A stretch of DNA of 64,000 nt, taken from positions 206,115 through 270,114 of the forward strand of contig JAKAJD010000001.1 of the NCBI GenBank assembly GCA_021813945.1. The letters are read 5' to 3'. The DNA is from a bacterium (GTDB lineage Bacteria; Patescibacteriota; Microgenomatia; Curtissbacterales; GWA2-41-24). Both the position numbers and the translations under genes were made by a program. Positions 3,194-49,850 of the stretch are shown piece after piece. Position 1 is the first letter of the stretch. Every line of letters begins with the position of its first letter. The notes under the pieces were generated by a model, which was not told the DNA's origin, did no database searches, and saw only the letters and a list, made by a program, of their open reading frames with translations.

Positions 3194-3975
3194 TGAACTT
3201 TCAAGATAAACTTATATCAGCCCAAAGACAAAACAACAGCCTTCTTTGTGTCGGCCTGGATCCGGACCCTCAAAAACTTCAAAAAGCCGAAACTCAGTTT
3301 GACTTCAACAAAAAAATAATTGATGCAACATCGCAATCTGTCTGCTGCTATAAACCGCAAATCGCTTTTTACGCAGCCGCAGGTGAAAATGGCCTACAGA
3401 GTCTTAAAAAGACGGTCGATTACATTCATCAAGCTTACCCAAATGTCCCCGTCCTTCTGGATGCCAAAAGAAACGACGTTGGCCACACTTCTGAAATGTA
3501 CGCACAAGAGGTTTTCGATATCATAGCCGCAGACGGAGTGACGGTCACACCATATTGTGGGTTTGACTCTCTAGAACCGTTTTTCAAAAGGGGCGACAAG
3601 GGAATCTTTGTGATTTGCCGGACATCCAACCCCGGCGCGGCCGATTTTCAAGATCTCAAAGTAGGGGAAAGCCCGCTCTACGTCGAAGTTGCCAAGAAAA
3701 TCGTTGAATGGAGCAAAACGTATTCCAATGTTTATTTGGAAATTGGTGCAACATGGCCCGAAGAGATAGGAGTCCTCAGAAAACTTGCACCCGACATGCC
3801 GTTTTTGATTGCAGGAATTGGCGCTCAAGGTGGCGACCTTGAAGCAACTCTCAAAAATGGTCTGACAAAAGGTAAAGACGGCTTGATAATCTCAAGCTCC
3901 AGGGGCATAATTTACGCCGATAATCCCAAAAAAGCTGCCCAGGATTTGAAAGAAGAAATCAACAAGTACAGATGA
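3172..3975 (+). CDS. pyrF: orotidine-5'-phosphate decarboxylase (type 2, long form)
   Basis: LCVGLDPDP...CYKPQIAFY...LLDAKRNDVGHTS...ICRTSNPG motifs. The start is either ATG 3172 (22-nt overlap with prs) or the in-frame GTG at 3193. Confidence 0.85.
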   Translation: MPQGRALVNFQDKLISAQRQNNSLLCVGLDPDPQKLQKAETQFDFNKKIIDATSQSVCCYKPQIAFYAAAGENGLQSLKKTVDYIHQAYPNVPVLLDAKRNDVGHTSEMYAQEVFDIIAADGVTVTPYCGFDSLEPFFKRGDKGIFVICRTSNPGAADFQDLKVGESPLYVEVAKKIVEWSKTYSNVYLEIGATWPEEIGVLRKLAPDMPFLIAGIGAQGGDLEATLKNGLTKGKDGLIISSSRGIIYADNPKKAAQDLKEEINKYR

Positions 3976-4577
3976 TTAAAAATAGTCAAAAAGAAAAATT
4001 AGTTCTTGCTCTTTATGAAATTGGAGCAATCAAATTCGGAAAGTTTAAGCTGAAATCCGGGAAAATCTCGCCTTTTTATCTGGACCTTCGTTTCTTGTGC
4101 TCATACCCTGAAGTATTAAAGCTTGTGGCCAGCTCAATCAACGAGATACTCAATGATCTGAAATACGACTTAATTGTCGGAATCCCTTACACCGGAATCC
4201 CTATCGCTACAGCTGTCGCTCTCCAGTATGACAAAAAAATGATTTTTACCCGAAAAGAAGCAAAAGATCACGGGATCCAAAGAATGATCGAAGGCATTTA
4301 TAAAAAGGGCCAGCGTTCAGTTTTAATCGACGATGTAATAGCCGACGGAGCCAGCAAGTTTGAAGTTATTGAACCACTAGAAAAAGAAGGTCTAGTTGTC
4401 AAAGACGTCATTGTGATTTTAGATAGAGGACAGGGTGGCGCAGACATTATGAAAAAAAGAGGTTACAATTTGCATTCTGCCCTCAACATTGAAGAAGTCA
4501 TATCAATCTTAAGGTCTAAAGGTAAAATCAGCACCAAACAGGTAGCCGAAATCCGCGCTTTCTTATCAAGTCTTTGA
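3972..4577 (+). CDS. pyrE: orotate phosphoribosyltransferase
   Basis: ALYEIGAIKFGKFKLKSGKISPFYLDLR... and the PRTase motif VLIDDVIADGAS. ATGA overlap with pyrF. Confidence 0.9.
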   Translation: MIKNSQKEKLVLALYEIGAIKFGKFKLKSGKISPFYLDLRFLCSYPEVLKLVASSINEILNDLKYDLIVGIPYTGIPIATAVALQYDKKMIFTRKEAKDHGIQRMIEGIYKKGQRSVLIDDVIADGASKFEVIEPLEKEGLVVKDVIVILDRGQGGADIMKKRGYNLHSALNIEEVISILRSKGKISTKQVAEIRAFLSSL

Positions 4578-4608
4578 ATAAAACCGGCCCTCAAGCTAAA
4601 ATAAGCTA

Positions 4609-5679
4609 ATGCTTCAAGACCCGTTTTACGACCCAACGATATCCTACGAAGAAAATTACGAAGAAGGCCCGTTCAATGCGTTTGCAGACGGCAAAATTTA
4701 TCAGCAAAAAGGTGAACCAAAACATGGTTTTCTCGGTCAAAAAGTCTATCTTCCATTTGGAATTCCCGCAGGGCCACTCTTAAATAGTAAATTTGTAAAA
4801 AGCGCTTTTGAAAAAGGCTTTGATGTCTGCGTCTACAAAACCGTCCGCGCAAATGTCTTCCCGTGCCACGCTTTTCCAAACGTCCTCTCAATTCATTTTC
4901 AAGGCAAAGACTTATCAATGGAAAGGTTGAAAAAAGAAGTAGTTGCCGACGAAAATTTCCAGGATCCAATATCAATCACCAATTCTTTCGGAGTGCCGTC
5001 AAAAAACCCTGAAATATGGCAAGAAGACGCAAAAAGGGGCATCTCCTTTGCCGGCAAAGGCCAAGTTATGATTTTAAGTTTCATGGGAACAGTAAAAAAA
5101 GATCAAACACAAAAGGAATTTATAGATGATTTCATTCTTGCAGCAAAACTGGCTAATGAAACCGGAGCAAAAATTCTGGAAGCAAATCTTTCTTGTCCAA
5201 ATATCGGAAACGAAGGTCTTGTCTGCTATAACCTTCCGGTCACAGAGAAAGTAGTCAATGGAATAAGAAAAGCAATTGGCAACAAACCCCTAATTCTTAA
5301 AATCGGCTATTATCAAAACCAAAAGGATCTGGAAAAACTTGCAGAAATTACCAACGAGTATGCAGACGATGTAGCAGGTATAAATACTCTCCAGGCAACA
5401 ATAGTTGATCACGAAGGGCAGCAAGCTCTTCCAGGTCCAAACCGCCTAAGAAGCGGTGTCTGTGGATATGGTATTAAATGGGCCGGTCTTGAAACGGTTA
5501 GACAGCTGAAAAATATCAAAGAGAAAAGAAACTACAAATTCTCAATCACAGGTGTTGGCGGGGTTTTGTCAGTCAAAGACTATCAAGAGTACAAGACTGC
5601 CGGAGCCGATTGTGTTATGAGCGCAACCGGTGCAATGTGGAATCCATATTTAGCTCAGGAAATAAAAAAAGCGATTTAA
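4609..5679 (+). CDS. pyrD: dihydroorotate dehydrogenase-like (class 1 DHOD/DHPD family TIM barrel)
   Basis: ANLSCPN...KPLILKIG...ITGVGGV...GADCVMSATGAM are hallmarks of DHOD-family flavoenzymes. It completes a prs-pyrF-pyrE-pyrD block. Confidence 0.75.
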   Translation: MLQDPFYDPTISYEENYEEGPFNAFADGKIYQQKGEPKHGFLGQKVYLPFGIPAGPLLNSKFVKSAFEKGFDVCVYKTVRANVFPCHAFPNVLSIHFQGKDLSMERLKKEVVADENFQDPISITNSFGVPSKNPEIWQEDAKRGISFAGKGQVMILSFMGTVKKDQTQKEFIDDFILAAKLANETGAKILEANLSCPNIGNEGLVCYNLPVTEKVVNGIRKAIGNKPLILKIGYYQNQKDLEKLAEITNEYADDVAGINTLQATIVDHEGQQALPGPNRLRSGVCGYGIKWAGLETVRQLKNIKEKRNYKFSITGVGGVLSVKDYQEYKTAGADCVMSATGAMWNPYLAQEIKKAI

Positions 5680-27979: not shown

Positions 27980-28033
27980 ATTGGGCTGGAATTATACAAA
28001 AGATCAGAAGATAAATCAACTATAGGTCTTAAG

Positions 28034-28105
28034 TGGCTCCACGGGGAATCGAACCCCGCTTTGGACCTTGAAAGGGTCCCGTCCTAACCGATAGACGATG
28101 GAGCC
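28034..28105 (-). tRNA. tRNA-Glu (anticodon UUC)
   Basis: Minus-strand sequence GGCTCCATCGTCTATCGGTTAGGACGGGACCCTTTCAAGGTCCAAAGCGGGGTTCGATTCCCCGTGGAGCCA folds as a cloverleaf (7-bp acceptor, T-loop TTCGATT, anticodon loop CTTTCAA). No encoded CCA. Confidence 0.85.
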
Positions 28106-28990: not shown

Positions 28991-29049
28991 AACCTAGGGG
29001 TTCAACTGGAGAAATCACAAACAATTTTGACCAGAGCCAAAATCATTTG

Positions 29050-29121
29050 TGACCCGCACAGGATTCGAACCTGTAACCAATTGCTTAAAAGGCAACTGCT
29101 CTACCATTGAGCTAGCGGGCC
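29050..29121 (-). tRNA. tRNA-Lys (anticodon UUU)
   Basis: Minus-strand sequence GGCCCGCTAGCTCAATGGTAGAGCAGTTGCCTTTTAAGCAATTGGTTACAGGTTCGAATCCTGTGCGGGTCA folds as a cloverleaf. Anticodon loop CTTTTAA. Confidence 0.85.
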
Positions 29122-29207
29122 AAACGAAGTAATCGTGTTTGATATTATATCCAAAGTAGCATTGATCATCAACCAAACTAAAAGGTAGAATTATCTAAGT
29201 CAAGCAT

Positions 29208-30164
29208 ATGAATTGGATTGATCTTGTAATTATTTTAGTTGTTTTGGCTTTTGCTATCGAAGGTCAGAGTCAAGGTTTTCTGGATCAAACATTAAATATT
29301 TTAGGGTTCGCATTTTCGCTTATTGCAGCGCTGCTATTTTATTCTTCTTTGGATAATGTATTATCAAAAGGTTTTAACTTATCACCCATAATCGCTGCTC
29401 CTATTGGATTTCTAATAATTTGGGTTGTAATAGAAACAGCATTTGCATTAATTATTAATGGTTTTCTCATAAAATATTTGCAAAAATTTGAAAAAAATAA
29501 GCTGAATCAATATTTAGGCTTTATACCCGCTATTTTTAATGCACTATTGTTTCTTTCATTTGTGCTATTGCTTTTCGTGTCTCTACCTGTAAGACCGGAT
29601 TTAAAAAACGATGTCTTTAGATCCAAAATCGGATCTTACTTAGTACAAAAAGCGATAACTTTAGAGCGCCCCTTAGACAAGGTTTTTGGACCTATTACAA
29701 AACAGTCACTGACATTTTTAACAGTTGATCCCAAAGAAAGCGGCTCCATCGACCTGCACTTTAAACAAGACCAACTGACAATAAATTACACAGACGAACG
29801 AGAGATGCTAAATCTAGTAAATAGTGAAAGGGCAAAAGTAGGAGTAGCACCCCTAACATGGAGCAATGCTTTGGCAGGTGTTGCCAGAGCTCACAGTGAG
29901 GATATGTTCAAACGTGGCTATTTTTCACACTTTTCGCCGGAAGGAAAAGACGTCGGGGACCGACTTTCGGATTCCGGCATTCCTTATACTTACGCTGGTG
30001 AAAACCTTGCACTTGCGCCAAATTTGCAAACAGCATTCCAGGGTTTAATGGGCAGTGAAGGCCACCGCCGGAATATGCTGGACCCAGCTTTTCATAAAAT
30101 AGGCATTGGCGCTGTAAACGGTGGTGTTTATGGCGAAATGTTTACACAAGTCTTTACCGAATGA
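29208..30164 (+). CDS. fusion of a CvpA-family membrane domain (N-terminal) with a CAP/SCP/PR-1 extracellular domain (C-terminal)
   Basis: The N-terminal 4-TM region resembles CvpA. The C-terminus has CAP motifs: ...LTWSNALAGVARAHSEDM..., HFSPEG, GENLA, GHRRNML. Confidence 0.7.
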   Translation: MNWIDLVIILVVLAFAIEGQSQGFLDQTLNILGFAFSLIAALLFYSSLDNVLSKGFNLSPIIAAPIGFLIIWVVIETAFALIINGFLIKYLQKFEKNKLNQYLGFIPAIFNALLFLSFVLLLFVSLPVRPDLKNDVFRSKIGSYLVQKAITLERPLDKVFGPITKQSLTFLTVDPKESGSIDLHFKQDQLTINYTDEREMLNLVNSERAKVGVAPLTWSNALAGVARAHSEDMFKRGYFSHFSPEGKDVGDRLSDSGIPYTYAGENLALAPNLQTAFQGLMGSEGHRRNMLDPAFHKIGIGAVNGGVYGEMFTQVFTE

Positions 30165-31711
30165 CGAAAAAACTCCCAAAATCATTACAAGTTTTTCTCA
30201 TCTTAATTCTTGCCCTCTTCTTGCTTACGCGAAAAATTGATAAACCCTTTTGGGGACATCACGACTGGAATAGCGTTGTCTACAGTAATATTGCAAGAAA
30301 CTATATTAGATATGGATATATAAAAACTAAATTTGGACAGGTCACGTCTGTTGATTTACAGAAACCTGAACATTTCACATATATCACTCATTACCCGCCA
30401 TTACTCCCGATTTTGATAAGCATAAATTTTCGTATATTCGGCCAATCAGAACTTGCTGCACGATCAACGATCGTCCTTTTTTCATTAATTTTAATTTTTT
30501 TCATTTATGAAATCGGTAATGAATTAGGAGGCAAATTGATGGGATCTCTAGCTTCAATATCTCTTACATTAACTCCTATTTTCATGTATTTCGGGAAATT
30601 ACCTGTTCACGACACAATAGTTCCTGCTATATCAGCAGCAGGTTTTTGGTCGTATATAAGATATATCAAAACGAAATCAAACAAATATTATGCACTCCTT
30701 GCCATAACTATTATTATAGGGGGCTTAATAAACTGGAGCGCATATTACTTAGTTCCAGCACTTCTATTTATGCAAATTACAACTAAAGCTGGTAAACAAA
30801 TAAGAGGCAATATCTATAAACTAATGCCACTCGCTATTCTTATTTTCTTAATTCAAATAATCCACACCAATATCTTGGATAGCGCATCTACAGGTTCAAT
30901 TTTCAGTAATGTTCTCGAGAGAATAGATCCTTATCTGACATCATCTCTTTATGGCTTTGCATTTTTCAAATACATAAGGCAAGAACTTTTATACCTAAGA
31001 ATTTATTACACAATGCCGGTGTTTTTAGGTTCTGCTTTTTTTATTCTGTTGACACTTTTTAATATATTTAAAAAGCAAAGAAGGTTAAATTCGGAGCAAC
31101 TTTTTATTTACGCACTATTTATTTACGGCGCTATCCAGCTTGTTCTTTTTTCTCAACTTTCATTTATTCATGATTATATGATCTATTATCTGGCGCCTTT
31201 TATGAGTTTATCCTTTGCCTACATTGCAACAAAAATGATAGACCCTTTTAAAAAATCTCTCATATGCCCGATTCTCTTGATTGGAATATTCTACTTCATA
31301 TTTGTAAGCCAGCTGAAATTTACTAAAGCCCTCATCGCAACAGATACAAATAAAAGGGGATTTCTTGTAGGTCAGTTAATAAATAAAGAATCGCCTTCAG
31401 GATCCTTAAGTTATATAACATCAAATTCATACAAAGAGTTTCAGGAAGTATTTATCGGTTATTATTCAGACAGAAATGTATCTTACGGGGAAAGTTTACC
31501 AAGGGATTTTGAAAGTAAATACGAGCTAATCGTAAGGCCAAAAGACCATGACCCTTTGCCGGTTGAACAAAAAGAAATTTTAGATACAAGATACCTGCGT
31601 TACGAAGATAATAATTTTATCTGGTACAAAACGAAGTTTACGCGAAGCAAATTTAACGTTTCTTCTCTACGGTCTCTACAACATCTAGAAGCCACGGATT
31701 TTCATCAATAA
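30161..31711 (+). CDS. GT-C fold membrane glycosyltransferase (ArnT/PMT family, GT39/GT83-like)
   Basis: N-terminal FWGHHDWNSVVYSNIARN, HYPPLLPIL and more than 10 TM helices are typical of ArnT/PMT_2 enzymes. ATGA overlap with the CvpA-CAP gene. Confidence 0.7.
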   Translation: MTKKLPKSLQVFLILILALFLLTRKIDKPFWGHHDWNSVVYSNIARNYIRYGYIKTKFGQVTSVDLQKPEHFTYITHYPPLLPILISINFRIFGQSELAARSTIVLFSLILIFFIYEIGNELGGKLMGSLASISLTLTPIFMYFGKLPVHDTIVPAISAAGFWSYIRYIKTKSNKYYALLAITIIIGGLINWSAYYLVPALLFMQITTKAGKQIRGNIYKLMPLAILIFLIQIIHTNILDSASTGSIFSNVLERIDPYLTSSLYGFAFFKYIRQELLYLRIYYTMPVFLGSAFFILLTLFNIFKKQRRLNSEQLFIYALFIYGAIQLVLFSQLSFIHDYMIYYLAPFMSLSFAYIATKMIDPFKKSLICPILLIGIFYFIFVSQLKFTKALIATDTNKRGFLVGQLINKESPSGSLSYITSNSYKEFQEVFIGYYSDRNVSYGESLPRDFESKYELIVRPKDHDPLPVEQKEILDTRYLRYEDNNFIWYKTKFTRSKFNVSSLRSLQHLEATDFHQ

Positions 31712-31958
31712 GCTGAGCGGTTGTACGCTCTTTATAATCCGAAAGGTCCCTCCTGTAAATTCCTTTCCAGTTTCCAGTCAAACCCTCGATGCGAGCTTCC
31801 TTTATTTCAACCATGCGCCTTATATGTGCAAGATCTCTAAGTAAATTGTCGTAGGGATTATCGGTTACTTGGTGTTGTGAATTTTCGCCAGGAACCTGTC
31901 TTCGTTCTGCCTCTGCTCCCAAACCATGCTCTATAGCCTCAATGCTTATCGCAGACAC
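31653..31958 (-). CDS. hypothetical protein (101 aa), last gene of the dinB operon
   Basis: ORF only. Co-directional, 27 nt downstream of dinB. Its 3' end overlaps the convergent glycosyltransferase gene by 59 nt. Confidence 0.35.
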   Translation of the reverse strand: MSAISIEAIEHGLGAEAERRQVPGENSQHQVTDNPYDNLLRDLAHIRRMVEIKEARIEGLTGNWKGIYRRDLSDYKERTTAQLIDENPWLLDVVETVEKKR

Positions 31959-31985
31959 TTATTATAGGTTAATTATATACCTTTT

Positions 31986-33266
31986 TCACGCCTTTTTCAA
32001 GAAATTTATCCTGTAGCTTTTGTCTCCAAAATAACCGGTCACTTCCGGCATTACAATTGGCATCCCCAAAAGCTGTCCAGGGAAAACAGTATAATGGCCA
32101 AAACGGCTGTTTATCCTATCAACCGACGATACTAGTCTTACACGCCTTCTCTCTTCATCAAAAAGCGGTACAGGTTGGTGTCTGCTCGCTGTAAGCATTC
32201 CAAGCGTAACTCCGCAAAAAATTATGTTTTTAGGTTGCCACTCGTCAGCAATCTGCTTACAAACCCTAAAAAGGTCTTGGCCTGTATTGATGTAACTTGC
32301 CAAGGTTTTGTGTCCATACCAGGATTTAGCCTCAGCATCGCTTTTTAAGTTCCCAGACCATTGCCTTGGCGAGGTTCTAAGACAAAACCCTACGTAACGC
32401 CCACAAAGCCTCATTGCACGGGCTTTTTCGGCGGCTTCCTCGCATAAATTTCGAGTAACTTTATAAATCTCAGATCTGCTTTCTAAAATCCTGTGTGCGG
32501 TATAAGTTCTGCCGACCGATTTGGCGTCTGGAATAGAATCAAGCCCAACTAAAGGACTGTTATCGATCCCTCTGGCAACATTATAAAGGTGTAAAGACCA
32601 ATAAGGCCCAAAATGTTTATATAAAAAGGGGAGTGATTGTTTTCGCAATTTGGCAAAATCATTTATCCCCAGGCTCGTTAAATGGCTATAAAGGCCCCAG
32701 CCGAGTCCGCAAATCTCCATCAATTTGGATTTGTCCAAAACCTCAAGCATATTATCGTGTGTAATCCAAAAAAGGCCATCAGGCTTGATTTGTTCAGAGG
32801 CAAGCTTAGCCAAAAGCTTATTGTGGGAAATTCCAACAGAACAAGTTAAATAATCACCAACTTCTCGCAGTCTCTTTTTAATATCAAATGCAATATTAAA
32901 AGCATTACCCCAGAACTTTTCAGTTTCAGTTACATCTATAAAACATTCATCCAGTGAAAAAACTTCGCAAAGCGGCGAATAACTTGAACAGATATCAATA
33001 AATTTCCGGCTTATATATTCGTATTTTGAAAAATCCGCAGGTACGAGAATAATTTCGGGGCAAAGTTTTCTAGCGTCATATGTTCTTGAACCTGTTCCAA
33101 CGCCTTTACGTTTGGCTTCAACAGAGGCCGCGATAATACAGCTTCTACCACGGGCTTTAACAACGCCAACAGGCTTCCCCCGGAGCGCAGGATTAGCTTG
33201 CTGTTCGGCCGTTGCAAAAAAGCTGTTTAAATCCGCATGGATGATAACTCGCTTGTCATTTTGCAT
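31986..33266 (-). CDS. dinB: DNA polymerase IV (Y-family translesion polymerase, DinB/UmuC-like)
   Basis: VIIHADLNSFFATAEQ...SCIIAASVEAKRKGV is the Y-family palm. 426 aa. Confidence 0.9.
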   Translation of the reverse strand: MQNDKRVIIHADLNSFFATAEQQANPALRGKPVGVVKARGRSCIIAASVEAKRKGVGTGSRTYDARKLCPEIILVPADFSKYEYISRKFIDICSSYSPLCEVFSLDECFIDVTETEKFWGNAFNIAFDIKKRLREVGDYLTCSVGISHNKLLAKLASEQIKPDGLFWITHDNMLEVLDKSKLMEICGLGWGLYSHLTSLGINDFAKLRKQSLPFLYKHFGPYWSLHLYNVARGIDNSPLVGLDSIPDAKSVGRTYTAHRILESRSEIYKVTRNLCEEAAEKARAMRLCGRYVGFCLRTSPRQWSGNLKSDAEAKSWYGHKTLASYINTGQDLFRVCKQIADEWQPKNIIFCGVTLGMLTASRHQPVPLFDEERRRVRLVSSVDRINSRFGHYTVFPGQLLGMPIVMPEVTGYFGDKSYRINFLKKA

Positions 33267-33276
33267 TTAAAAACGA

Positions 33277-33603
33277 TTAAACTTTCTCTGTCACCTTTTT
33301 GACCTTCCATATATAATTATTTGCATTGTATTCGAGTTCAAAATTTGCAGTATCCGAAGCGCAAACCAAATCGACCATCCGTGAATCACCAACTCGCCTA
33401 GAAGAGGAAAAAATTACCTTATCAAACTTTACAAAGCGCCGGTTCCAATTCATTGCAATAGGGAAAATTCCTTGATCAAAAAAAGCCCAAACTTTTACCT
33501 TATCATCAACCTCAGTATCCATAATCTCTTTATACCCAAATAAAACCCGAAAATCAAGTGGCAATTTAGCTAGATCTGTAGTATTCTCTAAATCCTTAGC
33601 CAA
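33277..33603 (-). CDS. hypothetical protein (108 aa), first gene of the dinB operon
   Basis: ORF only. 10-nt spacing to dinB. Lies 8 nt from the divergent rhomboid gene. Confidence 0.45.
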   Translation of the reverse strand: MAKDLENTTDLAKLPLDFRVLFGYKEIMDTEVDDKVKVWAFFDQGIFPIAMNWNRRFVKFDKVIFSSSRRVGDSRMVDLVCASDTANFELEYNANNYIWKVKKVTEKV

Positions 33604-33611
33604 AATTTAAA

Positions 33612-34271
33612 ATGTTTCCTATAAGAGATACTAAAAATTCCAATAAATTTCCTTTTGTAAACCTGGCAATAATAGGCACAAATATTTATGTTTTTTATCT
33701 TGAGCTGACAAACCCCGCAATCGAACAATTTATAGGCAAATACGCTCTAATACCGGCAAACATTAACTTTGCAGACATAAACACGCTATCACCGTTTGTG
33801 ACTTCGATGTTTCTGCACGCTGGGTTTTTACATATCATCTCTAACATGTGGTTTTTGTGGATTTTTGGTGACAACGTAGAAGCTAAAATTGGTCACATAA
33901 AGTACTTTACTTTTTACATATTTTGCGGAATCGTGGCAGCATTTGTGCAATATATATTTACGGCAAGCTCTAACATACCAATGCTAGGCGCATCTGGCGC
34001 GATAGCGGGTGTCCTGGGCGCTTATTTAAGGTTTTTTCCCCGCAACAAAGTTGACACGTTAATACCGGTTTTTTTCTTACCGCTTGTTATTAGTATTCCT
34101 GCGGTTTTTATGTTAGTTTACTGGTTTTTAATTCAAGCTTTTTCTACCTTTTCAGCCATAACCGAAACAGCCGGCGGCTTCGACGGCATTGCCTACAGTG
34201 CTCATATAGGAGGATTTTTAATTGGTTTTATAACAGCCCGCTATTTTGTATGGCAAAGCAGACGATTTTGA
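33612..34271 (+). CDS. rhomboid family intramembrane serine protease
   Basis: GASGAIAGVLGAY (GxSG) and the AHIGGFLIG catalytic His. Six TM helices. Confidence 0.85.
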   Translation: MFPIRDTKNSNKFPFVNLAIIGTNIYVFYLELTNPAIEQFIGKYALIPANINFADINTLSPFVTSMFLHAGFLHIISNMWFLWIFGDNVEAKIGHIKYFTFYIFCGIVAAFVQYIFTASSNIPMLGASGAIAGVLGAYLRFFPRNKVDTLIPVFFLPLVISIPAVFMLVYWFLIQAFSTFSAITETAGGFDGIAYSAHIGGFLIGFITARYFVWQSRRF

Positions 34272-35396: not shown

Positions 35397-35633
35397 ATGG
35401 ATCCCAACGACCAGAACCAAATGCCACCGGCAGACGGTGATAATGGCCAGGCACCAACTCCTCCGGCTCCGGAACCAACACCAACTCCGGCTCCGGAAGA
35501 ACCAGCTCAGGGTGGAATGGATGTTCCTCCAGCACCACCAGCAGGTGAAGATCAAGGTCTTCCAGTCCCGCCACCAGCAGGCGAGCCTGAAGTTCCTTCA
35601 GAAACACCTGCTCCTGAAACTCCTCAACAGTAA
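35397..35633 (+). CDS. small acidic Pro/Ala/Glu/Thr-rich low-complexity protein (78 aa)
   Basis: A perfect SD (AAAGGAGG) lies 8 nt upstream of the ATG. Local GC spike. Sequence PAPEPTPTPAPEEPA...PPAPPAGEDQGLPVPPPAGEPEVPSETPAPETPQQ. Confidence 0.5.
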   Translation: MDPNDQNQMPPADGDNGQAPTPPAPEPTPTPAPEEPAQGGMDVPPAPPAGEDQGLPVPPPAGEPEVPSETPAPETPQQ

Positions 35634-47096: not shown

Positions 47097-47717
47097 TTAA
47101 TTCTGGTACTTTCTAATAACTGCAACACACTTACCCTGTATCGTTACATTTTTGGCAAATATTGGCTGCATAGTAGTATTTGAAGGCTGCAACCTAACTC
47201 TATCCTTTTCCTTAAAGAAACGTTTTAAAGTCACAACCCCGTTTTCTATCATCGCGACGACAATGTCCCCGTTATTCGCGTGGTTTGTCTCCTCAATAAC
47301 TACAAAGTCTCCATCCAAAATTCCGTCATCCACCATAGATTCTCCCTTAACTTGCAAAACATAAGATTTTTTGTTTGCGGAAACCATATTTGCGGAAACT
47401 GCAAAAGTTGCATTAGGGTCGGTATAAGGTTCGATTGGAGAACCAGCAGCAATGAAACCCGAAAGAGGCAACTCAATGCCCTTAACAATTTTTCCGATTT
47501 TTTGGTCTATCAGCTCTATGCTTCTGGACACTCCACCGGATTTTTTGATCAAACCCTTTTTCTCTAGCGTCTGTAAATGCTCATGGACTGTAGCAAGCGA
47601 TTTAACCCCAAGTTTTTTAGCAATCTCAACTAAAGTCGGCGCATGTCCGTACTTTTCAATATAGTCGTTAAGATAATCTAAAATTTGTTTTTGCCTTTTG
47701 TATAAAACTAAACTCAT
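47097..47717 (-). CDS. lexA: LexA repressor (S24 peptidase)
   Basis: N-terminal wHTH (LTKRQKQIL...GHAPTLVEIAKKLGVKS) and C-terminal KGESMVDDGILDGDFVVIEE...VTLKR (Ser/Lys dyad). ATG at 47717 (MSLVLYK...). Confidence 0.9.
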   Translation of the reverse strand: MSLVLYKRQKQILDYLNDYIEKYGHAPTLVEIAKKLGVKSLATVHEHLQTLEKKGLIKKSGGVSRSIELIDQKIGKIVKGIELPLSGFIAAGSPIEPYTDPNATFAVSANMVSANKKSYVLQVKGESMVDDGILDGDFVVIEETNHANNGDIVVAMIENGVVTLKRFFKEKDRVRLQPSNTTMQPIFAKNVTIQGKCVAVIRKYQN

Positions 47718-47740
47718 GTTATGATATATATATACCAAAT

Positions 47741-47759
47741 AAAACCCGAAATTGTCAAG
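47741..47759. promoter_or_regulatory. 19-bp element AAAACCCGAAATTGTCAAG, copy 1 (contains TTGACA on the lexA strand)
   Basis: Exact duplicate of 47797-47815. Lies in the lexA/uvrB divergent promoter region. Confidence 0.45.
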
Positions 47760-47796: not shown

Positions 47797-47815
47797 AAAA
47801 CCCGAAATTGTCAAG
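47797..47815. promoter_or_regulatory. 19-bp element AAAACCCGAAATTGTCAAG, copy 2
   Basis: Exact duplicate of 47741-47759. A TATAAT for uvrB lies at 47839-47844. Confidence 0.45.
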
Positions 47816-47855: not shown

Positions 47856-49850
47856 ATGAAATTTGATCTAAAAGCAACATATAAACCAACCGGTGACCAG
47901 CCTCTAGCAATTGAGAAACTAGTTGATGGCCTAAGTAATAACTATCAACACCAAACGCTGCTTGGCGTAACTGGTTCCGGAAAAACTTTCACAGTTGCCA
48001 ATGTTATCCAAAAAATCCAAAAGCCAACGTTGGTTATCAGTCACAACAAGACGCTGGCAGCCCAACTCTACCAGGAATTCCGCGAATTCTTCCCAAACAA
48101 TGCGGTATGCTATTTCGTCTCTTATTACGACTATTACCAGCCCGAAGCCTATCTTCCCGCAACAGATACATATATAGAGAAAGAAACCGAGGTAAACGAG
48201 GAGATAGACAGGCTCAGGCTAGCAGCAACTACGGCACTTTCAACCAGAAACGACGTTATCGTAGTAGCTTCCGTCTCCGCAATCTACAATCTTGGGTCAC
48301 CTGAAGAATATAAAAACGCCCGCGTCGATCTAAAAGTCGGCCAGGCGTGGTCAAGACTCGACCTTCTCACAAATTTTGCCAGGCTTCAATATGAACGAAA
48401 CGATACGGATTTTGCCAGGGGAACCTACCGCGTCCGCGGCGAAAACGTAGAAATAATCCCTGCTTACGAAAATAATGGTTTAAGGCTCGCTTTCTCAAAC
48501 GATACAATCCGAAAAATAGAAACTATCCACCCCGTGACCGGGAAAATCATCAAGTCTCATGAAGCTTATGCCCTCTATCCGGCAAAGCATTATGTAACAG
48601 CTGATCCAACAAACGAAAACGTCATCTCCTCAATAAAAGACGAACTAAAAGCCCAGCTTAAATTCCTGGAATCAAAAGGGAAAGTTTTAGAAGCGCATCG
48701 CCTCAAACAACGTACGAACTACGATTTGGAAATGATAAAAACGCTGGGTTATTGCAAAGGTATCGAAAATTACTCCCGCTACTTTGACGGCAGAAAACCG
48801 GGCGAGGCACCATTTTCCCTAATTGAGCATTTTCCTAAAGATTATCTTTTAGTAATCGACGAGTCGCATATGACTATTCCTCAAATCCAGGGAATGTATA
48901 ACGGCGACCATGCCAGAAAAACCATGTTGGTTGATTTCGGCTTTCGGCTTCCGTCTGCATTCGACAACCGGCCGCTTAAGTTTGAAGAGTTTGCTCGCAG
49001 AATAAATCAGGCAATTTACACGTCGGCTACTCCGGCCCAATATGAAATATCCATATCAAACCAGGTAGTCGAGCAACTTATTCGTCCTACGGGATTAATA
49101 GATCCCCAAATATCTGTCCGCAAAACAGAAGGCCAGATAGAAGATCTAATAACAGAAATTGAAAAAAGAGTACAAAAACACCAACGGGTACTGGTCACCA
49201 CTCTCACAAAACGTATGGCCGAAGAACTTTCAAAATATCTCGAGGAAAAGAAAATTCGCGTAACCTACCTTCACAGCGAAATAGAAACACTAGACAGAAC
49301 GGATATTTTAGACGATCTTAGGCTTGGGAATTACGACGTTTTAGTTGGCATCAACCTTCTGCGCGAAGGTTTGGATCTTCCCGAAGTTACCCTCGTTGCC
49401 ATTCTAGACGCAGATAAAGAAGGTTTTCTCCGGTCGGAAACGTCACTTATCCAAACAATGGGCAGGGCTGCACGCCACGTAGACGGATCTGTAATTCTAT
49501 ATGCAGATACAGTCACCAAATCAATGGATAGAGCAATAAAAGAGGTCACAAGAAGAAGAAAAATCCAGATGGACTATAACGCCAAACACAACATCAAGCC
49601 CCGTTCAATCGAAAAACCTATCCGCGGAAAGCTAGTTGAGCGTCAAAAAGAAGAAGATAAAAAGCTAATCTACAGGGACACAGTAATAGCCAGTGTTATG
49701 GAAAGGGCCAAAGAAGGATCAATTTTACCTGAAGACAAAACAAAACTTATAAAATTTCTAAATCGCGAAATGAAATCAGCGGCCCGCGTCCTCGATTTCG
49801 AAAAAGCGGCGTATCTGCGTGATCAAATCATAGAACTCAAAACAAATTAG
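47856..49850 (+). CDS. uvrB: excinuclease ABC subunit B
   Basis: GVTGSGKTF Walker A, beta-hairpin and helicase motifs, and a C-terminal UVR domain (...AAYLRDQIIELK). Confidence 0.95.
   Translation: MKFDLKATYKPTGDQPLAIEKLVDGLSNNYQHQTLLGVTGSGKTFTVANVIQKIQKPTLVISHNKTLAAQLYQEFREFFPNNAVCYFVSYYDYYQPEAYLPATDTYIEKETEVNEEIDRLRLAATTALSTRNDVIVVASVSAIYNLGSPEEYKNARVDLKVGQAWSRLDLLTNFARLQYERNDTDFARGTYRVRGENVEIIPAYENNGLRLAFSNDTIRKIETIHPVTGKIIKSHEAYALYPAKHYVTADPTNENVISSIKDELKAQLKFLESKGKVLEAHRLKQRTNYDLEMIKTLGYCKGIENYSRYFDGRKPGEAPFSLIEHFPKDYLLVIDESHMTIPQIQGMYNGDHARKTMLVDFGFRLPSAFDNRPLKFEEFARRINQAIYTSATPAQYEISISNQVVEQLIRPTGLIDPQISVRKTEGQIEDLITEIEKRVQKHQRVLVTTLTKRMAEELSKYLEEKKIRVTYLHSEIETLDRTDILDDLRLGNYDVLVGINLLREGLDLPEVTLVAILDADKEGFLRSETSLIQTMGRAARHVDGSVILYADTVTKSMDRAIKEVTRRRKIQMDYNAKHNIKPRSIEKPIRGKLVERQKEEDKKLIYRDTVIASVMERAKEGSILPEDKTKLIKFLNREMKSAARVLDFEKAAYLRDQIIELKTN

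Follow-up and report, generated by a model that had tools for sequence, protein, structure and literature searches.

A small gene and the Y-family DNA polymerase gene that follows it in a Curtissbacteria-like member of the Candidate Phyla Radiation most probably constitute a conserved two-gene, DNA-damage-inducible translesion-synthesis cassette, imuB-C (33277-33522) and then polY (31986-33266). It is an ordinary system in an unusual bacterial lineage, and no new kind of system is revealed. The features involved, all located within the window, that is, the whole 64,000-nucleotide stretch of DNA that was analysed, are the following.

31653-31958, minus strand: down101, a lineage-restricted orphan with a GTG start, predicted to be helical (codon statistics of two copies)
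31972-32000, minus strand: sigma-70-type promoter TTGAAA-17-TATAAT for down101 (11/12 consensus matches)
31986-33266, minus strand: Y-family DNA polymerase, 426 aa (Pfam IMS 1.3e-43, IMS_C, IMS_HHH_1)
33277-33522, minus strand: up81, an 81-aa standalone ImuB-C-like protein (homolog lengths, profile search, hhalign, AF2)
33529-33557, minus strand: promoter whose spacer holds a candidate LexA operator (sequence, conservation, 16-mer count)
47097-47717, minus strand: lexA, encoding the putative repressor of the cassette (Pfam Peptidase_S24 7e-30, LexA_DNA_bind 9.6e-19)
47729-47758, minus strand: lexA promoter with the same candidate operator (TTGACA, then aatTTCGGGTTTTATTTGG, then TATATA)

The preliminary description depicted this locus as a three-gene dinB operon with two accessory proteins, and its geometry is accurate at the level of open reading frames. 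The three minus-strand ORFs lie at 33277-33603 (108 aa, TTG), 31986-33266 (426 aa) and 31653-31958 (101 aa, GTG), separated by gaps of 10 nt and 27 nt; 8 nt separate the start of the 108-aa ORF from that of the divergent rhomboid gene (33612), and the 101-aa ORF overlaps the convergent PMT_2 glycosyltransferase ORF (30161-31711) by 59 nt. The glycosyltransferase ends in a non-conserved tail of 19 residues that is missing from its closest homolog, and the overlap falls wholly inside this tail. Rfam and tRNA scans detected no RNA gene within the region of the finding.

The start of the upstream gene requires revision. It is almost certainly the ATG at 33522, yielding a protein of 81 rather than 108 aa, because most homologs are 80-83 aa long (the close ones number at least 55) and conservation begins at M28. 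Read in frame, a conserved promoter/operator DNA element gives codons 15-26 of the 108-aa ORF ('LDFRVLFGYKE'), so that the N-terminal extension is best read as translated promoter and operator. With the start set at 33522, the divergent region between up81 and the rhomboid gene expands to 89 nt, and the argument that the promoter must be internal or shared for want of room dissolves, having arisen from a mis-set start codon. The locus is a cautionary case on both counts: the seeming amino acid conservation in the N-terminal extension was conserved regulatory DNA, and the puzzling gene overlap was merely a non-conserved ORF tail.

The promoter revealed by this correction consists of a -35 element, TTGATT (33557-33552), and a -10 element, TATAAA (33534-33529), and was omitted from the consensus promoter scan because the last base of the -10 element is A. 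The ATG starts 6 nt past the -10 element and, therefore, the mRNA would be leaderless or nearly so. The 17-nt spacer ttcgggttttatttggg (33551-33535) contains a direct repeat, TTCGGGT-N4-TTTGGGT, which is retained upstream of the small gene in 16/16 orthologous promoters, with diverging flanks. The 16-mer TTCGGGTTTTATTTGG occurs in the window only twice, in the cassette promoter and in the lexA promoter (0/100 shuffles), and a further partial copy of the element, CTTGACAATTTCGGGTTTT, lies between lexA and uvrB (about 47797-47815). We infer TTCGGGTTTTATTTGGGTA as the candidate LexA-bound element. Direct-repeat LexA motifs feature in several reports, among them a 2017 study of Patescibacteria (Environ Microbiol 19:3465), as cited in PMC7739468. 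The sharing of the element between the cassette and the window's own lexA implies SOS control, and the gene pair thus appears to be damage-inducible. In the scenario that we propose, LexA would bind the direct-repeat element and repress both lexA and the cassette; upon DNA damage, RecA-stimulated cleavage of LexA would de-repress the leaderless or short-leader bicistronic mRNA; and the polymerase would then act, at the beta-clamp, within a PolY-[ImuB-C]-RecA complex, in which ImuB-C could be the non-catalytic regulatory or docking subunit, a role that has been proposed for it in this module (PMC6511836; PMC12926913). The SOS regulon of this lineage would gain a two-gene target, marked by the direct-repeat element in the promoter spacer.

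The small protein itself escapes the standard domain libraries: up81 has no match among the Pfam, NCBIfam, PHROG or PADLOC models, Peptidase_S24 included. A search of 1.8e9 proteins with the family profile (A2) nevertheless recovers 113 cluster representatives at E<=1e-3, nearly all of them full-length proteins of 80-86 aa (about 82). A tblastn search with one family member (P0165) leads to plasmid pSD of Geobacter anodireducens, where lexA is followed by the gene for an 84-aa protein and that, in turn, by a Y-family polymerase gene. The hhalign comparison of the family profile with this 84-aa protein, a proxy for GSU0042 picked by taxon and operon architecture, gives 97% probability and an E-value of 8e-11 over 76/81 columns, at only about 25% identity between the two proteins. 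Standalone ImuB-C has been described as a globular domain of about 80 residues, mainly beta-strand, with HMM searches relating the GSU0042-like proteins to ImuB's C-terminal domain at E-values of 1e-4 to 1e-5 (PMC3765255), and as pairing with DinB-like polymerases in LexA-controlled operons (PMC3765255; PMC6511836). It is this published description, together with the operon architecture on the Geobacter plasmid, that provides the ImuB-C identity, and as judged from the profile comparison, up81 belongs, as a very divergent member, to the published family of standalone ImuB-C (GSU0042-like) proteins. Consequently, of the two small proteins presented as unfamiliar, the upstream one loses its claim to be a distinct new accessory factor, and the downstream one indeed matches nothing; neither matches Peptidase_S24, just as the preliminary description held.

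The AF2 model of up81 is consistent with the assignment, being all-beta, with six strands, no helix and a pLDDT of 93, and gives a confident picture of an ImuB-C domain that is very small and free-standing; a PDB sequence search with the family profile returned noise only (E>=0.12). W72 is invariant across 47 close sequences as well as in a 105-sequence set with distant relatives added, and R29 and K32 are conserved at >=90% in the close set. The connection to a Pfam family is less direct. DUF6504 (PF20114) is matched by 39/105 relatives scanned at E<=0.01 (best E 6.3e-8), by a single one of the 47 close homologs (E 0.039), and not by up81 itself in the Pfam scan; among ten relatives checked singly, nine matched, all below the 24.2-bit gathering threshold and in the N-terminal half only. 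The link of up81 to DUF6504 is transitive, at the superfamily level, and not formal membership, and the diverse small-protein alignment could seed a proper family model. Weak matches of nine family members to DUF3013 (best E 0.007) were taken as noise because they do not recur among distant relatives.

The partner gene encodes a Y-family polymerase with the catalytic D/DE motifs visible in the translation, and is predicted to be active, the catalytic residues having been kept. Beyond the core, a clamp-binding-like motif, QPVPLF, occurs at about residues 365-370, and positions 2-22 of DUF4113 align at residues 377-397, although at a sub-threshold E-value of 0.039; the N-terminal part of DUF4113 is found at the same site in 4/10 orthologs scanned, at E-values of 2e-4 to 0.08, all sub-threshold. 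We interpret this segment as a UmuC-like C-terminal extension, in which the clamp-like motif would be followed by a DUF4113-N/RecA-NT-like motif. After the latter comes a lineage-specific, highly conserved tail, ...QLLGMPIVMPEVTGYFGDKSYRINF, with the consensus QLLGMPI[VI]xPEV[TN]GYFGD[KR]xYRL across orthologs. All matches to the NCBIfam DinB and UmuC models fall below the curated cut-offs, the best being to the PRK03103 subfamily (247.5 bits against a cut-off of 381). The polymerase encoded after imuB-C in Geobacter is 40% identical (6e-67), and the C-termini of the two enzymes align as well (6e-9). The original label, dinB (Pol IV), is thus right with respect to the Y-family core and imprecise beyond it; given the clamp-binding-like and RecA-NT/DUF4113-like motifs in the C-terminal part, the enzyme differs from a plain Pol IV of the E. 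coli type.

The downstream ORF presents another facet of the locus. It has no Pfam, NCBIfam, PHROG or PADLOC match, a PDB sequence search yields noise only (E>=0.12), and Foldseek finds no match for its model (E>4). One could surmise that down101 is not a gene at all, but a frame left open by chance in a variable spacer: there are just two copies among 5.8e9 proteins, in the window and on one 912-nt contig (L002), and no other homologs; the start codon is GTG, with no detectable RBS; the AF2 model, with four helices, has a moderate pLDDT of 71; and the frame runs into the glycosyltransferase ORF. We consider this unlikely, however, given that the two copies, 70.6% identical in nucleotides, both keep the frame open, with a dN/dS of 0.18 and a dS of 1.3, near the 1.4 of the adjacent polymerase; that differences between the copies are distributed by codon position as 20/23/46, the third position accumulating twice as many as either of the others, and the other five frames hold 2-9 stops; and that the promoter and start context are conserved. 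It appears that down101 is coding and evolves under purifying selection.

The ImuB-C/PolY pair could also be imagined as a distinct minimal mutasome of this reduced CPR genome, in which the conserved polymerase tail is a dedicated dock for the free ImuB-C barrel and a sub-lineage has recruited down101 as a modulator. Such a mutasome would be a variant architecture outside the 11 complex types catalogued in 2026; we view it as a doubtful proposition compared with the two-gene cassette. Still less probable is the original notion of a three-gene operon, with both small proteins forming a new accessory set for Pol IV. The three ORFs do share one strand and are separated by short gaps; no terminator is predicted between any of them, so that read-through from the polymerase into down101 may occur; and down101, seemingly under purifying selection, adjoins the polymerase in both genomes that carry it. 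However, it is absent from 15 related loci, where the 3' side of the polymerase holds nothing, a glycoside hydrolase or an unrelated 130-aa ORF; its homologs are limited to one close relative; and it has a strong promoter of its own, which overlaps the polymerase stop codon, an arrangement kept in L002, the sole other copy. Moreover, the upstream protein already belongs to a known family. The synteny data largely refute the three-gene reading, and since the downstream ORF does not accompany the polymerase consistently and has its own promoter, the unit comprises two genes, not three. Comparison of the loci suggests that down101 arrived recently as an independent gene and occupies a variable slot, bounded by the polymerase gene and a conserved CAP/CvpA gene. 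The 130-aa ORF, present in L006, was considered as a relative of down101 and ruled out (BLASTP E 0.39).

The upstream gene behaves quite differently. It lies directly upstream of the polymerase gene in 16/16 related loci, namely, the window, 14 fetched Curtissbacteria-type loci carrying the small gene, and a more distant relative, L018 (45% and 55% identity), the one locus recovered in a metagenome scan with an intermediate relative (P0131). In 14/14 fetched Curtissbacteria-type loci, and in the window, the two genes are co-directional with the small one first, spaced by -8 to 158 nt; L018 keeps this order and orientation. The expectation of a small, non-S24 accessory-type protein accompanying a Y-family polymerase is borne out here, and conservation next to dinB in relatives holds for the upstream gene and fails for the downstream ORF. 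The co-occurrence count comes mostly from one syntenic clade, with L018 and Geobacter as the only independent arrangements, and one might attribute the adjacency to inherited, wholesale synteny devoid of functional coupling, the small protein acting elsewhere, for example, as a DNA-damage sensor serving other repair systems. A homolog on a Pelobacter plasmid does not adjoin a polymerase, and Aravind et al. report ImuB-C also with Ku/ligase, SplB and other partners (PMC3765255). Yet, loss or relocation of the rhomboid gene and turnover in the downstream region have left the two genes together, with their operator in place; in L018, the flanks are rearranged, with the rhomboid gene now downstream, and the pair is kept. 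The same pairing exists in Geobacter, and DinB-type polymerases are the most frequent partner of ImuB-C in the literature (PMC3765255). Inherited synteny without coupling is therefore a highly improbable explanation.

The two-gene cassette most closely resembles the Geobacter, or standalone, ImuB-C system, in which, likewise, a beta-rich protein of about 80 aa with a conserved C-terminal Trp and a fold without a PDB relative is encoded directly 5' of an active Y-family polymerase with a clamp motif and a RecA-NT-like motif (sub-threshold in the present case), in an apparently LexA-linked cassette; no DnaE2 or ImuA genes are present in the fetched regions. Unlike the Geobacter arrangement, the window's lexA is outside the operon, 14 kb away, with a candidate operator in common; identity between the small proteins is only about 25%, and up81 is unseen by Pfam, NCBIfam and PHROGs; and a distinct tail, PEVTGYFGD..., is conserved in the polymerase. 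The host also differs, belonging to the CPR/Patescibacteria, a group that goes unmentioned in the two published surveys consulted. The ImuB-C/PolY translesion module would thereby extend to the Candidate Phyla Radiation, where the genes for the small subunit are left 'hypothetical' because standard domain libraries miss it.

According to the literature, the ImuA-ImuB-DnaE2 mutasome follows the same logic of an ImuB-C domain combined with a RecA-NT motif, but there a fusion joins ImuB-C to an inactive polymerase, and the domain docks DnaE2, whereas here ImuB-C is separate, the Y-polymerase is catalytically intact and the locus lacks DnaE2 and ImuA. Pol V (UmuD'2C-RecA) and YqjX/YolD-YqjW also have a small-subunit gene 5' of a Y-family polymerase, SOS control (probable here), and a polymerase with a C-terminal clamp motif and a RecA-binding motif (again, sub-threshold here). 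That up81 itself is a UmuD or YolD/YqjX-type subunit, with an SH3-like barrel and an N-terminal arm inserted into the polymerase, is extremely unlikely: its position upstream of a polymerase with a RecA-NT-like motif recalls the umuDC and yqjX-yqjW operons (PMC6511836, PMC12926913), but up81 shows no Peptidase_S24 domain, Ser-Lys dyad or Ala/Cys-Gly autoproteolytic cleavage site, none of the 47 family members matches PF08863 (YolD) at E<=10, and the AF2 model has no disordered N-terminal arm. Finally, the polymerase of the cassette and E. coli DinB (Pol IV) have the same Y-family catalytic core (IMS, IMS_C), and LexA control would be expected, but the E. coli enzyme is described as the core plus a C-terminal clamp motif only, whereas the enzyme in the window scores under all DinB equivalog cut-offs, extends past the clamp motif and has a dedicated upstream partner gene.

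The conserved unit at this locus is a two-gene, SOS-type imuB-C-polY cassette, and the third ORF, previously grouped with it, is unrelated baggage. The preliminary description had seen here a three-gene operon with dinB (Pol IV) between two small proteins of a possibly distinct accessory set. Reading of the ORFs bore out all of its coordinates, the gaps of 10 nt between the 108-aa ORF and the polymerase and of 27 nt between the polymerase and the downstream ORF, the 8 nt separating the 108-aa ORF start from the divergent rhomboid gene, and the 59-nt convergent overlap; Rfam and tRNA scans placed no RNA family or tRNA inside the three-gene region. The genes are as follows.

30161-31711, PMT_2 glycosyltransferase ORF, convergent with down101
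31653-31958, minus strand, down101, the ORF 3' of the polymerase (101 aa, GTG start)
31986-33266, minus strand, Y-family polymerase (426 aa)
33277-33603, minus strand, upstream ORF as first called (108 aa, TTG start)
33277-33522, minus strand, up81, the same gene as corrected from homolog lengths and conservation from M28 (81 aa)
33612-34271, rhomboid gene, divergent from the upstream ORF

A search of 5.8e9 proteins yielded 55 homologs, most of them 80-83 aa long, with the named ones belonging to Candidatus Curtissbacteria, one of the CPR/Patescibacteria lineages. Conservation sets in at M28 of the 108-aa ORF, that is, at ATG 33522, and the few homologs with long annotated N-termini have in common the peptide LDFRVLFGYKE, which results when a conserved DNA element, cacTTGATTttcgggttttatttgggTATAAAgagattATG, is translated in frame; this element reads as a -35 box, a 17-nt spacer and a -10 box, and ends 6 nt 5' of this ATG. 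Because conservation begins at M28 and the N-terminal peptide is translated promoter DNA, we assign the gene to 33277-33522; its transcript would probably be leaderless or nearly so. With this start, an 89-nt divergent intergenic region holds the promoter, and therefore, the apparent lack of room that had seemed to force an internal or shared promoter is gone. Database gene calls of 103-156 aa in this family carry spurious N-terminal extensions, and the apparent amino acid conservation in window positions 33523-33603 and in the homologs P0002-P0004, P0010 and P0036 is promoter/operator DNA in translation.

Within the promoter, the spacer TTCGGGTTTTnTTTGGGTA forms a direct repeat of TTYGGGT, two copies with a period of 11 bp. 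A pattern search of 14 loci found exactly one copy of this element per locus, 5' of the small gene, and a script matched it in a more distant relative, L018, as well; the intergenic DNA around the element is not conserved. The 16-nt core has a single other occurrence in the window (0 in 100 shuffles), namely, in the promoter spacer of lexA, in the following pair of genes.

47097-47717, minus strand, lexA (Peptidase_S24 and LexA_DNA_bind domains), divergent from uvrB
47856-49850, uvrB, divergent from lexA

The intergenic region of this pair contains two copies of CTTGACAATTTCGGGTTTT, one in the lexA promoter spacer and the other partial, and uvrB may share the element. Presence of such an element in the promoter of the LexA repressor itself is what classically marks an SOS box. 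It appears likely, judging from the sequences, that the shared element is the SOS box of this lineage, in which case LexA would bind it and DNA damage would induce the cassette. Direct-repeat LexA motifs are the subject of several reports, a 2017 Patescibacteria study being among those cited in PMC7739468. In four loci, L009 (2891-3336), L010, L011 and L018, the operator lies 69-426 nt 5' of the small gene, compared to about 10 nt elsewhere; these loci would have a genuine 5' leader or, in the case of L009, possibly an extra element between operator and small gene.

No Pfam, NCBIfam, PHROG or PADLOC model matched up81 or down101, and the earlier remark that neither resembles an S24 peptidase thus stands. 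When 1.8e9 cluster representatives were searched exhaustively with a profile, 113 proteins were retrieved at E<=1e-3; almost all of them are 80-86 aa in length and align end to end. A Pfam scan detected DUF6504 in 39 of 105 up81 relatives (best E 6.3e-8), and nine of ten relatives examined singly produced DUF6504 matches, all below the Pfam cut-off and confined to the N-terminal half. Comparison of one relative, P0165, with plasmids by tblastn led to pSD of Geobacter anodireducens (L016), with this gene order.

3377-3985, lexA, first gene of the lexA/84-aa/polymerase order
3989-4243, 84-aa hypothetical protein, between lexA and polymerase
4240-5468, Y-family polymerase, frameshifted, after the 84-aa gene

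This order matches the published lexA-imuB-C-polY order of GSU0041-0043 in Geobacter sulfurreducens, where GSU0042 is the prototype of the standalone ImuB-C domain in the account of Aravind et al. 2013 (PMC3765255). The domain is characterized there as a beta-rich unit of ~80 residues in which a C-terminal Trp and two basic residues are conserved, and as paired most often with DinB-type polymerases and LexA; in Timinskas & Venclovas 2019 (PMC6511836), standalone ImuB-C is coupled to active polymerases termed 'GeoPolY-like'. In a profile comparison, the Curtissbacteria family matched the Geobacter 84-aa protein with 97% probability (E 8e-11, 76 columns), and within the up81 family, the C-terminal W72 is invariant and R29 and K32 are conserved. 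The empty fold searches here agree with the portrayal of ImuB-C in a 2026 survey (PMC12926913) as a beta-barrel without a close PDB relative. We conclude that up81 is a predicted divergent standalone ImuB-C, the comparison running through the Geobacter 84-aa protein and extending to GSU0042 and ImuB by description only. Profile searches of both small proteins, as initially proposed, thus connect the upstream one to ImuB-C but leave down101 without a match.

Several peripheral observations concern this family. The pSD polymerase (CP014964.1) is broken by a frameshift into ORFs 4240-5106 and 5082-5468 and is absent from the plasmid gene table, and therefore, is probably a pseudogene. On Pelobacter propionicus plasmid pPRO1 (L017, NC_008607.1), an unannotated ImuB-C-like ORF (129425-129628) lies beside the IHF-alpha gene, with no adjoining polymerase. 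In P0178 (871 aa) and P0223 (909 aa), the C-terminal half of the up81 family profile matched 7-8 repeated stretches, which might represent either a hairpin motif present in several copies or a repeat protein with no relation to the family.

The window polymerase is no plain Pol IV. It belongs to the Y-family (Pfam IMS 1.3e-43, plus IMS_C and IMS_HHH_1) and keeps the catalytic acidic motifs HADLNSFFA and SLDECFIDVT, but falls below every NCBIfam DinB/UmuC cut-off, the best match being the PRK03103 subfamily at 247 bits vs a cut-off of 381. The motif QPVPLF, C-terminal to the little-finger domain, resembles a clamp-binding motif and is followed by RRRVRLVSSVDRINSRFGHYTVFPG, which matches DUF4113 over its first 22 positions with a sub-threshold E of 0.039; sub-threshold matches at the equivalent site were found in 4 of 10 orthologs scanned. 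The N-terminal part of DUF4113 is treated in PMC6511836 as a RecA-NT-like motif common to UmuC, YqjW, ImuB and others. Identity between the window polymerase and Geobacter polY is 40% (6e-67), and their C-termini align across this motif (6e-9). A further tail, QLLGMPI[VI]xPEV[TN]GYFGD[KR]xYRL (window 31986-32090), is conserved among orthologs as strongly as the catalytic core, is covered by no model, and may be a partner-docking motif.

The small gene lies immediately 5' of the polymerase and is codirectional with it in the window and in all 14 fetched relatives, with gaps of -8 to 158 nt. Clade-wide synteny is behind much of this linkage, the pair being flanked by xseA, two hypothetical genes and the rhomboid gene on one side and by a CAP/CvpA gene on the opposite side. 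Five loci, however, lack the rhomboid gene, and what lies 3' of the polymerase differs from locus to locus. In L018 (small protein, 45% identity; polymerase, 55%), the flanks are rearranged, with the rhomboid gene now 3' of the polymerase, and the pair is retained together with the upstream element. Persistence of the pair in the rearranged L018 and in Geobacter supports a putative functional two-gene unit.

Co-occurrence with the polymerase, suggested as a check on the proposed operon, thus holds for the upstream gene but fails for down101, which none of the 15 other related loci contains. There, the polymerase is followed directly by the convergent CAP gene (gaps of 93-291 nt), by an MGH1-like glycoside hydrolase, or by an unrelated 130-aa ORF. 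Only two copies of down101 are present in a large protein database, that of the window and a 67%-identical one on a 912-nt contig, where it is again located 3' of the polymerase and lies directly next to the CAP/CvpA gene without an intervening glycosyltransferase. The two copies differ with a dN/dS of 0.18 (dS 1.30; adjoining polymerase segment, 0.07 and 1.40) and with 20, 23 and 46 differences at the three codon positions, and every other frame contains stops; therefore, down101 appears to be a genuine gene subject to purifying selection. A near-consensus promoter of its own, TTGAAA-17-TATAAT, overlaps the polymerase stop codon and is conserved in the second copy; transcriptional read-through from the polymerase is possible. 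The structural model has four helices and is of moderate confidence (pLDDT 71), and neither fold nor sequence searches gave a match. The preliminary description is partly right in that a conserved small partner gene exists, although one of a known family; down101 fits better as an orphan restricted to its lineage and occupying a variable slot than as a conserved partner of the polymerase.

The slot between the polymerase and CAP/CvpA is a variable hot spot (L001, L003, L005-L007, L009-L011, L013-L015), containing, depending on the genome, nothing, an MGH1-like glycoside hydrolase (416-465 aa), a PMT_2 glycosyltransferase, the 130-aa ORF (L006 7833-8225) or down101. The 59-nt overlap in the window corresponds exactly to a non-conserved 19-residue glycosyltransferase tail (31653-31711): the closest homolog (L006, 62% identity) terminates at ...FIWYKLKLKKSI, and the window ORF continues for 19 more residues, ...SKFNVSSLRSLQHLEATDFHQ. 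In their conserved portions, the two convergent genes simply abut.

The family of the small partner is already known, and the novelty is limited to the host lineage, with the CPR going without mention in two surveys of these polymerase systems, to a small protein so divergent that all standard libraries miss it, and to the placement of the operator inside the promoter spacer. Elsewhere in the window, the minus strand carries tRNA-Glu(TTC) at 28033-28105 and tRNA-Lys(TTT) at 29049-29121, the latter of which, read as protein, accounts for a 53-aa 'ORF' at 29015-29176. A proline-rich, low-complexity 78-aa ORF at 35397-35633 coincides with a local GC peak (0.51) and is flanked by conserved hypothetical genes of 347 and 222 aa.
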